Shown here piece after piece: positions 16,397 to 32,760 of a DNA stretch of 64,000 nucleotides. The notes under the pieces were generated by a model that saw nothing but the letters and a program-made list of their open reading frames with translations, was not told the origin of the DNA and made no database searches. The translations under genes and the position numbers were made by a program. Where the stretch lies: positions 1,234,539 to 1,298,538 of the forward strand of contig JAHQJS010000004.1 of assembly GCA_019057385.1 (NCBI GenBank), written 5' to 3'. Within the stretch, counting starts at the first letter, position 1. Each line of letters begins with the position of its first letter. This DNA is from Candidatus Borrarchaeum weybense (GTDB lineage: Archaea; Asgardarchaeota; Sifarchaeia; Borrarchaeales; Borrarchaeaceae).

Positions 16397-16404
16397 TCAC
16401 TATA

Positions 16405-17836
16405 GTTACTACTTTCGTAGAAAAATATTAAACTTCTTCCATACTAACCACAGGAACAAGTGGAAAGTAGTTAGAGGACTGGGGACCATATACTCCCAGG
16501 GATAGCCCGCGATCTCGTATGTTGCATGCGGCGTTATAGTCGGCGTCACCCTTATAACCGCAAGCTGGACATACGAATTTTTCATCTCGACGGATACCCC
16601 TGCTTCCACACTTGTGACAGACTTGACTCGACCAGTATGGGTACACCTCTATCAGGAAAACACGGTTTTCCTCGCAGAGCAACTCCAATTTGGTACAAGC
16701 ATGACGATAAGCCCAGTGTGAGAGCAGTCGGTTAGTGTAACGATTTCTTCGCTTCTTTTTATATTTTCGCGCTTTCTTACTTCGTCCTTTCTTCACATCT
16801 CGTAAGCGTTCGATCACTAGCACTCTTATTCTCGTGAAATCTATCTTCTTCAACTCACTATTGATGTGTTCTTTAATTATTAGGTGGCTTTTTTTCCTTC
16901 TGTAAAACCGCTCTATTTCCTGTTTCAATGTTCCTCCAACGATTTGACCATCAGATATCACTGCTAGTTTGCGAAAGCCCAGGTCCAGACCTACCATCTC
17001 TCCCAATTTTCTTATTGGGGGCAGTTGCTTCTCGAAGAAGACATCAAGGAAAAAGCCTTGTTTGGTTCTTCGTAGCCTACAGGACTTCAATAACTCCCAA
17101 CCCTTATTATAAAAAGAGTTAAAGTGATGATGTCGTTTGGTTGGCAGATAAATGGGTCTGCCACCTAAAATAGAGATTTTGATCCAGAGGTCAAAGGTGT
17201 TGTTGCCTTTTTTAATTTGCGCAAAGCGTTGGTCCAGTTCAAGTGTGGCTTTACAAATGACTGGTTTGGTTTTTTTGGTACGTTTACGCTGAGACTTGAC
17301 ATTCTGGAGTGCCTGTTTGGCGGCACATTGCTTGTATCGTTCTGTCAGTGATGTCCTTATGTGCAGGTAATATTTTTTAGGGACAAATGAGCCTTCGAAT
17401 ATATTATGATTCCAGAGGGTGTTGATGCATTTCTGCATAAAACTGAGATATTCATCAATTAAGTTATTCAGTATACTTTGTTTAAGTTTAGTCACATAGT
17501 TTAAGCTAAGGGTGGCCCGCCTAATCACGATATTCTCAAATCCTTTCGTATCTCGATATTAAACTATTAGTTACTAAGACACGTACTTAAGAAGAGTATT
17601 AGTCTTTATGATGCGGCTTTACAGAGTTAGTATATACAATCACCTTTTTTTAAGAACAGACTCCCCTTTGTATAAGTAAAATATCAAAAAAGAAAACCGC
17701 TTTCAGCGTTATGAAGTTAGGCAAATTGAGAGGAAACCTGATTGTATGATTACTTCTGATATAACCTCATTAAAACAAATTATGGCGATGTGTTTACGCG
17801 TTTTCTATGATTTCTATATTTTTACCTAAATCTCTT
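16405..17836 (-). mobile_element. Non-autonomous tnpB element 1 (IS607/IS200-605 superfamily, no transposase)
   Basis: Bounded by direct repeat TCACTATA at 16397-16404 and 17837-17844; removing 1440 bp restores a 166-aa ORF; TAGAAA-type subterminal repeats at both ends. Confidence 0.88.
16428..17528 (-). CDS. tnpB: RNA-guided endonuclease TnpB (366 aa, IS607-type)
   Basis: RuvC-I GLDLG, RuvC-II VIERL, Zn finger CHKC..CPAC, RuvC-III DADYNAACNI. Confidence 0.93.
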   Translation of the reverse strand: MIRRATLSLNYVTKLKQSILNNLIDEYLSFMQKCINTLWNHNIFEGSFVPKKYYLHIRTSLTERYKQCAAKQALQNVKSQRKRTKKTKPVICKATLELDQRFAQIKKGNNTFDLWIKISILGGRPIYLPTKRHHHFNSFYNKGWELLKSCRLRRTKQGFFLDVFFEKQLPPIRKLGEMVGLDLGFRKLAVISDGQIVGGTLKQEIERFYRRKKSHLIIKEHINSELKKIDFTRIRVLVIERLRDVKKGRSKKARKYKKKRRNRYTNRLLSHWAYRHACTKLELLCEENRVFLIEVYPYWSSQVCHKCGSRGIRRDEKFVCPACGYKGDADYNAACNIRDRGLSLGVYGPQSSNYFPLVPVVSMEEV

Positions 17837-17904
17837 TCACTATACATTTTAATTAGTTCAATTAAGTCGTGTTTCGAAAAATCCTTGAAGTCTGCTATTT
17901 TCAT
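17837..17904 (-). pseudogene. DUF6125-like gene, 5' part (MKIADFKDFSKHDLIELIKMYS)
   Basis: ATG at 17904 behind AGGTGA; continues in frame into 16396 once the element is removed. Confidence 0.8.
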
Positions 17905-29433: not shown

Positions 29434-30414
29434 TTAATATTGTATGTATCGAGTTCTGAAGTTTGTAGCTTTACGTCTGACGAGCAGTCGTTTATTTTTA
29501 AAGACGAATGTATCTAAATCTCTTACAACTAGAATTGTCCTCACATGATTTTTCAATTCTAGAATAGCCTTTGTGGATTCTTTTGTTTGAAAGGGTATTG
29601 ATTCTAAAGTGAGTCTCTCAGCAGCCTGTTTTAATATCGCTTCTTCAGTCGTTTCAATGTCTTTAGGAGTCTTTTTAAATAATGATCTGTGACCAAATCG
29701 CATATCGGCAATATGTGTCAATGCAAGATGGTTTGAATTGCTTCTTAGAGCATCAATCACAGCAGTAGATGGTGTAGAATGCATACTCTTTTGCGCCCAT
29801 CGTTTATTTTTGTTAGGAAAGGTACTTTCATGAAAGAAAATACACGAGTTTTGTCCTAATTTCTGAATCGAAGGAAAACCCGCAATGGTATCTACTGGGA
29901 ATGTGATTTTTAAATTAGGATTTTTGAAGGCGTAACAAAGAGTAGGTGTTCTATGTGCTGCTCTACATGCCCAAACTTCGGTATTTTGAATTTCATCTAT
30001 TTTCTTAATTTCATCTGATTGAAAAAATAGTTGGTTTTTTTCATCGTCACTTAGAAATTCTATAAACCGTGGAATCCTTCCTAAAAAACAAGCTCTGATA
30101 AAAAGTCTTAAGAAACGTTCTTTCTCAGGCGGATAAAACAATTTCACCTTTGGATTATCAGAAGCTTTTTTAATCTTACGAAGAACCCAACCAAAATATA
30201 CGGGGTTGAGGTGATCTAAATGTGTATGAGTGATATAGATGCGGCGGATTTTTGAAAAATCGTCTTTTCTAAGAGAAAGTAAGTTTTTGGATCCACAATC
30301 AATTAATGCAATAGATTGATCGTCATCAGAATATAGTCTTACGACCATTGCGCTTTTTGCTCTATATTGAAGTATGTTCGCTGAACCGCTTCCCATCACC
30401 TGCACTGAAAGCAT
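29434..30414 (-). CDS. Metallo-beta-lactamase fold hydrolase, RNase Z-like
   Basis: DCG, THTHLDH, AH, DT, HESTF, HST, TH motifs. Confidence 0.8.
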   Translation of the reverse strand: MLSVQVMGSGSANILQYRAKSAMVVRLYSDDDQSIALIDCGSKNLLSLRKDDFSKIRRIYITHTHLDHLNPVYFGWVLRKIKKASDNPKVKLFYPPEKERFLRLFIRACFLGRIPRFIEFLSDDEKNQLFFQSDEIKKIDEIQNTEVWACRAAHRTPTLCYAFKNPNLKITFPVDTIAGFPSIQKLGQNSCIFFHESTFPNKNKRWAQKSMHSTPSTAVIDALRSNSNHLALTHIADMRFGHRSLFKKTPKDIETTEEAILKQAAERLTLESIPFQTKESTKAILELKNHVRTILVVRDLDTFVFKNKRLLVRRKATNFRTRYIQY

Positions 30415-30463
30415 TAGAACGCCTCGTGAAATATTTTAGATTAACTATAAGCTATTTGCCTGA

Positions 30464-30505
30464 TTATTCCAAGATTTCATAGGGACTTCTTGTTGGCCAA
30501 TCAGG
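30464..30505 (-). pseudogene. Displaced 3' end of the cupin gene (PDWPTRSPYEILE*)
   Basis: In frame with 32395..32760 after removal of tnpB element 2. Confidence 0.8.
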
Positions 30506-30513
30506 TACCAACC

Positions 30514-32394
30514 GTTCCTTTCATTATAGACATCTCTTAACAACTCTTTGCAGTTATTAACACTGTCTATCCACCCAACGTCTGAACAAGACGGTGAATG
30601 GAGTCCCCGCTAGGACGGTTGAGCGGGATACCCGTCGCCATATAGGGGACAGGCTTTGCCTGTTTTAAACTAAAGCGCTTCTTACGCTTTTCTTGATACA
30701 CTCGATAGATGTTCACCGCCGCGATGTAATCGCGGTCGGCTAAATATGAACACGCCCCACAGTAAAAGAATCGGCCGCGTTTTAACACCTGGTGGGCACG
30801 GGGGTCACTGATCTTCGCCCCTTTGGCACCACAGCGCGGACAAAAACTCGATGTCCAGCGCGGGTTTACCCGCACCAGCTTGATACCGTAACGCTGTGCC
30901 TTGTACTTGAGAATTTCGTAAAAGGCCCCCCGTAGCCAATTGGAGAGTTTACGTGAGATTTTACGCAGGTGTTTCGGCGGCTGGTAGTTGCGCAAGTCCT
31001 CCAGCACGATGGTCTTGCACCCCCATGTAAGGGCAGTCTCCAGCAGCTGGTTGCTCGCTAAATGCAGTATCTCCTCGCGATAGCGGTTCAGTTTACGGTA
31101 CAGCCGCTCCAGTTCCTCCCTACGTTTACCCTGCCCGTACCAGTTGACGGGATAGCGATCTAACTTGCGTTGCAGCCGGGAGATATGGTGGTAGAGAGCG
31201 TCTATTTTTTGCAACACGGTGGTAGAGGGCGACCAGAAAATGGGAGGGCTCAACTGCGACCCAGCTTCACAGATTACCGAGGTCGTCAGTTTGATCACCC
31301 CCAGATCGGTGGCCAGCACACGGTTCGCCCGTAACGGCGGATAGTGTGTCTGAGGCTGCGTCTGGTGTTGGGGGTTTGGGTCAAAAGACCATGCACATTC
31401 CAGAAAGGGGAGTGTCAAGCCGCCTTTCAGTGTGATATAGCGTAAGTTAGGGGGACACAATTTACTAGAGGGTGAGATCACCCGTGCTTGAAGTTTGGCC
31501 GGTATCGACAGGGTAAACTCCTGCCACCCCCAGTGGGAGCGTTTCGTAGGCTGTGGGCGGCAGGGGAGTTTCAGTCTGATGGCGATGATGCTTGGATCGG
31601 CTTGGTGCGGCTGCCAGTCGTACTGAAGGGCTTGCCCCTCATCGGGGCTGTAGGGCAGGCTAAACGAGTGAAGTCGTGGTTTCACGACTGCGGAGTAAGG
31701 AAACCGCAACAACAGGCTTAAATCCAAGCCGAGTTGATAATAATAACGCCTAAACATGCGTAAGGTCTGACGGATCAGCGCCCAGCGATAAAATATGCCT
31801 TCAAAATTCGCTAAGGTGAGGGCTACGGTGCGCACTAAATTATCCAGTTTGCCCTCTACACCCGTGAGTTGAACGATCCGTAACACATCATAATAACACT
31901 GTTTGCGGATGGCTTGCGAGCGAAGGATGCGTCCCACCTGTTCGGCGATACACCGCCTGATGCGAGAGGGCAGGTACACCGCCGTTCCCTGGCTAGTGGT
32001 TAAGTTGACGCGCCGTTCGTTGATGACTTTGTAGGCCTTTTTTGTGCGGGCGGAGTCCAGCGTATCGATCCAATGATCGGACCATAATTCGGCTAAGAGT
32101 TTTTGAGCAGCGTGCATCACAATATCTTGGAGCATATCCAGTTCGAGGCGTAAGGTGGCGTCTTGTGGGAGTTTGAGTGGATACGTGTGCGTCAGCGAGG
32201 TCATAGGTGTGAAGTTCTCCTGCAGTTAAGGTGATATGGTCGTTCAGGGAGTTACCGGCACTTGAGTATAGAGAAACTAGTTATAAAAAGACAACCTTTT
32301 TTTAAGTAGTAACAAGGAGGTAGTCATTTGACGCCTCAAGCCGTGAAATAAATGTCTATAAAACGATACATGTGTTAATAGATGTGTCAACTTT
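30514..32394 (-). mobile_element. Non-autonomous tnpB element 2 (IS607-like ends, no transposase)
   Basis: Direct repeat TACCAACC at 30506-30513 and 32395-32402; subterminal motifs TTATAGACAT, ACATCT(A/C)TTAACA and TATTAACAC inverted between ends; visibly GC-richer than host. Confidence 0.9.
30567..32204 (-). CDS. tnpB: Large TnpB / Cas12f-like RNA-guided endonuclease (545 aa)
   Basis: RuvC-I ATDLG, RuvC-II VLEDL, VNPRWTSSFCPRC..CGAC, RuvC-III DRDYIAAVNI; ~300-aa N-terminal region. Confidence 0.9.
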   Translation of the reverse strand: MTSLTHTYPLKLPQDATLRLELDMLQDIVMHAAQKLLAELWSDHWIDTLDSARTKKAYKVINERRVNLTTSQGTAVYLPSRIRRCIAEQVGRILRSQAIRKQCYYDVLRIVQLTGVEGKLDNLVRTVALTLANFEGIFYRWALIRQTLRMFRRYYYQLGLDLSLLLRFPYSAVVKPRLHSFSLPYSPDEGQALQYDWQPHQADPSIIAIRLKLPCRPQPTKRSHWGWQEFTLSIPAKLQARVISPSSKLCPPNLRYITLKGGLTLPFLECAWSFDPNPQHQTQPQTHYPPLRANRVLATDLGVIKLTTSVICEAGSQLSPPIFWSPSTTVLQKIDALYHHISRLQRKLDRYPVNWYGQGKRREELERLYRKLNRYREEILHLASNQLLETALTWGCKTIVLEDLRNYQPPKHLRKISRKLSNWLRGAFYEILKYKAQRYGIKLVRVNPRWTSSFCPRCGAKGAKISDPRAHQVLKRGRFFYCGACSYLADRDYIAAVNIYRVYQEKRKKRFSLKQAKPVPYMATGIPLNRPSGDSIHRLVQTLGG

Positions 32395-32760
32395 TACCAA
32401 CCCCACAAACATTATGCCTCCAACAACTAAGAGCCACAACAACTCGTTGCTCGTATTATATACTCTGTGATCCGTGTTTTCTTTATTATATATCGCATCT
32501 CCAGCCTCAAATTCATAATTGACTCCTTCGGATTCTATTGTTCCCCTTCCTTGAAGAACATAATATACTTCTTCACAATTATGTCTATGTAACGGAGAAT
32601 GAGAATTCGGTTCAATTTCAACAATGCCCATAATGAGTGTTTTAGTTTCTACACCAGTTTCAGGGTATAGTACTTTAAGATCCTTTACTCCTGGACGCGA
32701 CTCCATTGGAGCACCTGGGATATATTCAGATTTCTTCACAACAACCTTACTAGAAGGCAT
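32356..32760 (-). CDS. Cupin domain protein, C-terminus replaced by element sequence
   Basis: HRHNCEEVYYVLQGRG and H..YN cupin motifs; native tail lies at 30464..30505. Confidence 0.85.
   Translation of the reverse strand: MPSSKVVVKKSEYIPGAPMESRPGVKDLKVLYPETGVETKTLIMGIVEIEPNSHSPLHRHNCEEVYYVLQGRGTIESEGVNYEFEAGDAIYNKENTDHRVYNTSNELLWLLVVGGIMFVGLVKVDTSINTCIVL

Follow-up and report, generated by a model that had tools for sequence, protein, structure and literature searches.

Among the described IS607-family transposons, those used here for comparison are ISXfa1 (Xylella) and IS607 (H. pylori), the TnpB proteins of which have been characterised (bioRxiv 10.1101/2023.08.09.552727). The ISXfa1 TnpB cuts targets flanked by GGG and not those flanked by CGG, and it is CGG that precedes the guide in the intact element (bioRxiv 10.1101/2023.08.09.552727). 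The TnpBs of ISFba1 and of other bacterial IS607 elements, with an average length of 390 aa, use guide RNAs derived from RAGATH-18 and recognise G-rich target motifs, AGGAG or GAGGG (PMC11061315; PDB 8IAZ). IS1341-type elements that carry only tnpB, as well as miniature guide-RNA cassettes, have been described in both the IS200/IS605 and the IS607 families (PMC10691335). Here we analysed a stretch of 64,000 nucleotides from the Asgard archaeon Candidatus Borrarchaeum weybense (contig JAHQJS010000004.1, positions 1,234,539 to 1,298,538; hereafter the window), in which a tnpB-bearing element interrupts a cupin gene at positions 30511 to 32399. It is very probable that we are dealing here with a TnpB-only, non-autonomous element of the IS607 family from an Asgard-archaeal lineage.

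The element resembles ISXfa1 and IS607 in that its autonomous relatives carry a serine-recombinase TnpA gene directly upstream of tnpB, that insertion is at a GGG-containing site without duplication, that the right end terminates in CGG, so that the occupied site is no target, and that the guide RNA is predicted to overlap the 3′ end of tnpB and to draw its guide from the right flank. It differs in that the copy in the window has lost tnpA, both junctions have an additional conserved T following GG (GGGT and CGGT), TnpB exceeds theirs in length by about 150 aa, its host is archaeal (Asgard), and the target motif is a predicted one. With the ISFba1 group it shares the IS607 association, a G-rich motif, and the overall fold, whereas its TnpB has 545 aa and its guide-RNA scaffold, with four hairpins and an invariant AGGAACGGU tail, matches neither RAGATH-18 nor any other Rfam family. 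Like IS1341-type elements it keeps tnpB and both ends without a transposase, and miniature copies and solo right ends are dispersed in the genome; however, the transposase-bearing relatives indicate that its ancestry is IS607-type and not Y1-type.

The insertion and its junctions comprise the following features:
30506..30513, no strand: left copy of the 8-bp repeat TACCAACC, consisting of the terminal GGT of the right end (30511-30513) and 5 bp of host DNA.
32395..32402, no strand: right copy of TACCAACC, consisting of 3 bp of host flank (GGT) and the first 5 bp of the left end (TGGTA).
32400..32404, minus strand: left flank GGGGT, part of the host's cupin codons; from 21 insertions it is predicted to be both the site of insertion and the target-adjacent motif of TnpB.
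32205..32399, minus strand: left end, 195 bp, non-coding, delimited by alignment of own-genome and metagenome copies.
32385-32373 and 32361-32352, on the tnpB strand: subterminal motifs ACATCTATTAACA and TTATAGACAT, respectively, of the left end.
32282-32289, minus strand: conserved TTTTTATA box in the left end, 85 nt ahead of the tnpB ATG, a putative archaeal promoter.
30567..32204, minus strand: tnpB, 545 aa, encoding a predicted RNA-guided nuclease of the RuvC type that belongs to a clade of large Asgard TnpBs (Pfam, NCBIfam, and fold).
32400..32760, minus strand: 5′ part of the Cupin_2 gene (Pfam Cupin_2, 4e-16; intact orthologue in locus L094), the frame of which extends in the occupied allele into the left end, to 32356.
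30464..30510, minus strand: 3′ end of the cupin gene, cut off by the insertion (..PDWPTRSPYEILE and stop codon), identified from the comparison with L094 and from in-silico deletion.

The original prediction, made from the sequence of the window, was that a TnpB element had split a cupin gene between two copies of an 8-bp direct repeat. It was found that the copies of TACCAACC at 30506-30513 and 32395-32402 are exact and offset by exactly 1889 bp, and that deletion of 1889 bp in silico yields a cupin of 135 aa with the C-terminus ...GGIMFVGLVPDWPTRSPYEILE before the stop; the cupin of the occupied allele has 134 aa, of which the last 12 (KVDTSINTCIVL) are element-derived. We found a natural empty site in a genome of the same genus (genome G004, locus L094), where the cupin gene is uninterrupted. 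The L094 sequence is 94% identical to the restored allele over 712 bp and collinear with it, gap-free through the junction, and the cupin orthologue it encodes is 95% identical as a protein. Its tail, PDWPTRRPYEILEESGK, agrees with the one that cupin homologues had been expected to carry. A second assembly, GCA_019058535.1, also has the occupied allele, with a TnpB that is 99% identical. The empty site and the second occupied one establish that the element precisely split the cupin gene.

The ends of the element were mapped by comparing copies. All ten right ends in its own genome finish in ...ATGTCTATnATGAAAGGAACGGT, with similarity lost directly after, and the terminus AGGAAYGGT was also found in 21 loci of other genomes, down to 39% protein identity; the right end was A(C/T)GGT in 31 of 31 copies. 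On the other side, the left flanks in the same genome always end in GGGT, and among 21 insertions the left flank was (G)GGGT in 18 and GGAGT or AGGT in the others. Position by position, these 21 flanks had T at −1 and G at −2 without exception, G at −3 in 19 and G at −4 in 20, and a base other than C at −5, and the right flanks of about 30 copies showed no consensus. The GGG-versus-CGG contrast described for ISXfa1 thus recurs at position −4 of the Asgard family. The ends are asymmetric and lack terminal inverted repeats; the inverted subterminal motifs that had been noticed at both ends were located in the left end, as listed above, and their reverse complements, overlapping each other, in the right end. 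The crossover dinucleotide would be GG or GT, between which the sequence does not discriminate. We also observed that L094 (G004:C120, ~1855-1870) reads GTTGGTT where the window has GTGGGGT (32400-32406), two synonymous changes exactly at the target, and because of these the empty allele lacks the GGGT insertion and cleavage motif.

The relatives of the element connect it to a transposase. In locus L039, from the same genus as the window and with a TnpB 76% identical to the window copy, a 187-aa gene abuts tnpB upstream and matches the NCBIfam IS607 transposase model NF033518 with 199 bits (cut-off 110). The genus of L039 was assigned from coordinates, as matches in G001, G002, and G003 coincide with L039, L040, and L038, which are labelled Borrarchaeota, Promethearchaeota, and Ca. 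Sifarchaeum, respectively. In L039, L042, L044, and L048, the IS607 transposase is enclosed by a left end flanked by GGGT and by the same right end, and the end sequences are the same in all four of these transposase-bearing loci, in which both ends were mapped. Searches using tblastn showed a complete transposase in L145 and L149, more diverged ones in L133-L138 (a subgroup at 43% identity), and, in L043, L128, and L129, copies that are partial or truncated at the N-terminus. At least 11 related loci, in Asgard genomes and metagenomes, therefore have an IS607 serine transposase directly upstream of tnpB, whereas a tblastn search of ~75 related loci with the genome's own Y1 TnpA found no Y1 transposase. 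Because relatives with the same ends encode TnpA and this copy does not, the element was filed as a non-autonomous IS607 derivative. The family ends, the serine-transposase relatives, and the ISXfa1 pattern all agree with the earlier proposal of an IS607-like element with a GG core and a G-rich target motif, such as the bacterial IS607 TnpBs have (PMC11061315).

The sole serine recombinase of the genome (C6:664.6 kb, 258 aa) was considered as a helper and rejected: it scores 24.8 bits with the IS607 model against the cut-off of 110, and its catalytic domain is N-terminal and followed by a C-terminal extension, which is not the IS607 type. This gene (C6:664611-665000, L035), the only one with a resolvase domain in the genome, stands beside small unannotated open reading frames (ORFs) and may be the recombinase of an integrated element.

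In a subgroup at 39-40% identity, from Heimdallarchaeota (L055, L056, L057, L064, and L075), the opposite strand was observed to carry a conserved divergent sequence ~290 bp ahead of tnpB. L056, the only one of these that was checked, has there an ORF of 512 aa with weak matches to LAGLIDADG_3 and HTH_3, which replaces the serine transposase. The same TnpB and the same type of right end are here combined with a different partner gene.

The protein encoded by tnpB matched Pfam Cas12f1-like_TNB (PF07282) at 2e-18, as well as OrfB_IS605, and the NCBIfam model guided_TnpB (NF040570) with 114.6 bits, above the cut-off of 100. In an alignment of 41 homologues the RuvC triad D300, E402, and D492 and the zinc ribbon C455/C458/C482/C485 (two CxxC) were invariant, and the RuvC motifs are thus intact, as had been read from the sequence; the first catalytic Asp is residue 300, which agrees with the reported N-terminal region of about 300 aa, and the length of 545 aa is indeed above the 390-aa average of bacterial IS607 TnpBs (PMC11061315). 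The ratio of non-synonymous to synonymous substitution rates (dN/dS) was 0.12-0.18 against nine relatives, and tnpB is under purifying selection.

More than 140 homologues were found by database search, most of them 520-545 aa long and nearly all from Asgard metagenome-assembled genomes (Promethearchaeota, Heimdall-, Hod-, Thor-, Hermod-, Borr-, Sif-, and Njordarchaeota), with haloarchaeal relatives at about 28% identity. The matches labelled as bacterial are probably binning errors. We observed that one such contig, from a bin assigned to Desulfobacterales (CR_Bin_060), and a Ca. Sifarchaeum contig of the same study share 1118 bp at 99.9% identity (L049/L050, L037/L038).

The relation of this protein to Cas12f and TnpB was ranked by profile comparison with the PDB and by fold comparison. 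An AlphaFold model (mean predicted local distance difference test score, pLDDT, 85.5) contained the WED-REC-RuvC-TNB fold and matched over its full length AsCas12f (PDB 8DZJ, 8J12), the best match in both structure and PDB sequence (Z 17.9, 376 residues; profile E 7e-19) and one of similar size, followed by Fanzor2 (Z 15.9), the ISDra2 TnpB (Z 15.3, 348 of 362 residues), and the IS607 TnpB of ISFba1 (Z 14.5, 353 residues). It differs from the type V-F effectors in that there is no CRISPR array and there are no adaptation genes here, the gene lies within a transposon with IS607 ends, and the NCBIfam Cas12f2 model gives 80 bits against a cut-off of 450. Structure prediction of the N-terminal part, which had been suggested as a check, placed helices at residues 16-173 and a beta domain up to about residue 275. 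Because the AlphaFold model aligns over its full length to Cas12f and TnpB structures, this part of ~300 residues is an ordinary WED/REC module, enlarged and with a Cas12f/TnpB-like fold, and not a new domain.

The 3′ end of tnpB overlaps a conserved RNA structure, with the following features:
30511..30675, minus strand: right end and omegaRNA scaffold, 165 bp (covariance model R1, 133 bits).
30631-30653, minus strand: hairpin H1.
30605-30628, minus strand: hairpin H2.
30571-30601, minus strand: hairpin H3.
30526-30570, minus strand: hairpin H4.
30511-30525, minus strand: single-stranded tail of 15 nt, ending in AGGAACGGT.
30491..30510, minus strand: predicted guide, comprising the 20 nt of host sequence directly past the right end (TGGTACCTGATTGGCCAACA) and at the same time what remains of the cupin ORF on its 3′ side; copies diverge after GGT.

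Hairpins H1-H3 lie inside the last ~36 codons of tnpB, the TAG stop is in the 5′ arm of H4, and the tail motif AGGAACGGU is invariant. From a plain MAFFT alignment RNAalifold recovered H1 and H2 only, as indels had put H3 and H4 out of register; all four were obtained after drawing the structure by hand, building a covariance model from 14 sequences, and re-aligning, and 34 instances were found. In these 34 sequences 92.6% of the cells of the scaffold were paired, compared with ~41% when the partners were slid by 1-3 columns, a large margin over the slid controls for an alignment that was fitted to the model and so favours it. Compensatory changes were found in 22 of the 34 scaffold pairs, and none of 500 shuffles scored as high. 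A cmscan of 30300-32600 against Rfam, with E up to 10, returned no family (RAGATH-18 included) and one chance match to a miRNA.

The H2 loop, ACYGU(U)CC, and the tail sequence GGAACGGU may form a pseudoknot, with 98.6% of cells pairable; the five variable pairs all change on one side only, to wobble pairs, zero compensatory changes were found, and shuffles score equally. As both the loop and the tail are nearly invariant, such a pseudoknot is compatible with the alignment and not demonstrable from it. By analogy with established TnpB biology, the guide would lie 3′ of the scaffold. Since the conservation of the right end runs through GGT, the guide is predicted to begin with TGGTACC... at 30510, running downwards; the guide given in the original prediction began one base too early.

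Full-length and shortened copies of the family were found elsewhere in the same genome (G000). A second full copy at C6:738227-740111 is 78% identical to that in the window. There are three intact, internally deleted mini-copies of 371-584 bp (C8:189922-190349, C6:83558-83928, and C6:284186-284769), one decayed mini-copy (C4:~1154400-1154825), and four solo right ends (C3:90933-91077, C5:218240-218381, C7:245085-245210, and C6:71920-72033). What the mini-copies retain is a left end including the TTTTTATA box, then ~100 nt from the 5′ part of the ORF and, of the right end, the terminal ~112 nt with H2-H4 and the tail. The flank differs at each of them, and it is possible, judging from their sequences, that they are stand-alone IS607-type guide-RNA cassettes.

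The significance of the 8-bp repeat was evaluated in 15 independent insertions with both junctions mapped. Beyond GGT, the junctions matched by 0 bp in nine of these, 1 bp in three, 2 bp in one, 4 bp in L048, and 5 bp in the window copy; in 13 of the 15 the junction identity was just 2-5 bp, mostly GGT, and the lengths seen overall were 2, 3, 4, 5, 7, and 8 bp. The first bases of the left end, which supply the additional match in the window, differ among lineages. Given GGT, the chance of a further 5-bp match is about 1/1000 for one copy, and this copy was chosen for its repeat; TACCAACC itself occurs three times on the plus strand and twice on the minus strand of the 64 kb, where ~1 per strand is expected for an 8-mer. 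A transposase that duplicates its target would give a constant length, and so the counts argue against a target-site duplication, and the variable lengths fit conservative serine recombination, which duplicates nothing. The repeat therefore appears to consist of the conserved GGT and a further 5 bp owed to chance or to a weak similarity of the target. As a meaningful architecture, or as one shared with other elements, it is not supported by this comparison. Nor is the idea that the ribonucleoprotein could bind its own left end, as that relied on the same extra bases (five, not six), which are missing from the other copies.

The only other long repeat among the 15 was observed in L048 (Heimdallarchaeota MAG_8, DXJL01000090.1), an autonomous tnpA-tnpB element with the 7-bp junction identity GGTAGAC. 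We also note that element 1 of the window (16397-17844), with a different TnpB of ~376 aa and its own 8-bp repeat TCACTATA, is single-copy in the genome by BLAST at the DNA level, and its repeat for this reason cannot be judged by comparing copies.

Taking these results together, the following course of events is proposed. An IS607-type serine TnpA, acting in trans and not found in the genome now, would have brought the element, as double-stranded DNA, into a GGGT site of the cupin gene through conservative recombination, without target-site duplication and with only the GGT core common to the two junctions. The other 5 bp of the repeat would be the element's own first bases (TGGTA), coincidentally matching the host DNA past the insertion point. 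Transcription of the right end would read through AGGAACGGU into host DNA to give a guide of 16-20 nt. If it behaves like ISDra2, ISFba1, and ISXfa1, the complex of TnpB with this RNA probably cuts the empty site, in which GGGT precedes the guide match. With an occupied copy as the repair template, the element would be regained at the cut site. An occupied site would escape cutting, as its guide match is preceded by CGGT and not by GGGT.

Some observations weigh against this interpretation. There is no IS607 transposase in the element or in the assembly (8 contigs, 100% complete by marker genes), and the element would therefore have no current mobility here unless a helper arrives. Junction identities of 7-8 bp in two of 15 insertions are more than expected by chance when the pre-selected window copy is counted (p about 0.002-0.007), whereas significance is lost when that copy is left out (p about 0.06-0.11). 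Third, the insert is GC-rich, as had been noted, and foreign in composition: the tnpB ORF has 54% GC and a G+C content at third codon positions (GC3) of 0.63, compared with 0.26-0.30 in three host genes of the window (the split cupin, a metallo-beta-lactamase (MBL)-fold gene, and uvrA), or ~0.28 for the host, in spite of the family's residence in the genus. This may stem from a recent transfer, from the avoidance of T-rich archaeal terminators ahead of a 3′ guide RNA, or from biased gene conversion in homing. Throughout the family, the tnpB ORFs (the window copy, L038-L053, and L105-L122) were observed to be always GC-richer than their hosts, at 0.39-0.55 compared with flanks of 0.30-0.47 (mostly 0.33-0.39).

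One alternative keeps the IS607-type mechanism and takes the 5 extra bases not as chance, with the transposase or an RNA-guided step favouring targets similar to the start of the left end. Four or more extra matching bases were found in two of the 15 insertions (5 in the window copy and 4 in L048), and four of ten right flanks in the same genome have GG at positions 2-3, like the start of the left end, GGTCAAC. However, nine of the 15 insertions have no extra match, the excess is no longer significant once the pre-selected copy is set aside, and no consensus emerges from the right flanks of about 30 copies; we regard such a preference as unlikely.

It is less credible still, and we consider it very unlikely, that the element moves as a single strand, inserted 3′ of GGGT by an IS200/IS605-type Y1 transposase, with the one Y1 TnpA of the genome (C7:194221-194586) acting in trans. 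Such movement would account for the fixed tetranucleotide of the left flank, the similar one at the right end, and the hairpin near the right end. However, zero Y1 genes were found in the ~75 related loci compared with at least 11 IS607 serine transposases, the Y1 gene of the genome is situated ~670 bp upstream of a different TnpB of ~400 aa, and the GGG/CGG logic is the published pattern of IS607.

Finally, a genuine target-site duplication of 8 bp, produced by some DDE-type or Cas1-like transposase with a staggered cut as a new mobilisation of TnpB-only elements shared with element 1, can hardly be maintained and is largely refuted already by the sequence comparisons, for although the repeat is exact at the window copy, a 7-bp one is present at L048, and the element is without a transposase, a fixed length would be expected where 13 of 15 insertions share 2-5 bp, 3 of the 8 bp are the conserved family core, the autonomous relatives with an IS607 serine transposase have identical mapped ends, and the ends are asymmetric.

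The preferred interpretation, an IS607-type insertion with a partly accidental repeat, removes the suspected undescribed mode of mobilisation, because the 8-bp repeat would be accidental to one copy and the published IS607 rules are followed. For an Asgard lineage of unusually large IS607 TnpBs it documents the ends, a predicted GGGT motif, and a scaffold backed by covariation, and it shows that copies with a transposase, copies with tnpB only, and miniature copies occur together in one genus. A ready system for testing an archaeal pair of IS607 TnpA and TnpB is thereby available, together with a candidate compact nuclease with a new target motif; the value for the field is modest but real. 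A more far-reaching view, to which we give a small chance, is that these large TnpBs (520-545 aa) form an IS607 clade, so far almost Asgard-only, with its own class of four-hairpin RNA (no Rfam match, the AGGAACGGU tail maybe pseudoknotted) and a predicted GGGT motif, that the 7-8-bp identities reflect a real preference for targets like the left end, and that the GC-richness is the footprint of repeated gene conversion in homing.

One neighbouring gene lies downstream of the insertion:
29434..30414, minus strand: MBL-fold gene, 326 aa, downstream of the cupin gene; its earlier description as RNase Z-like is not confirmed by Pfam, which gives a Lactamase_B_2 match under the cut-off (E 4e-4).

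In the empty allele this gene begins 50 bp past the cupin stop, and in the occupied allele the element now stands between the cupin promoter and the MBL-fold gene.

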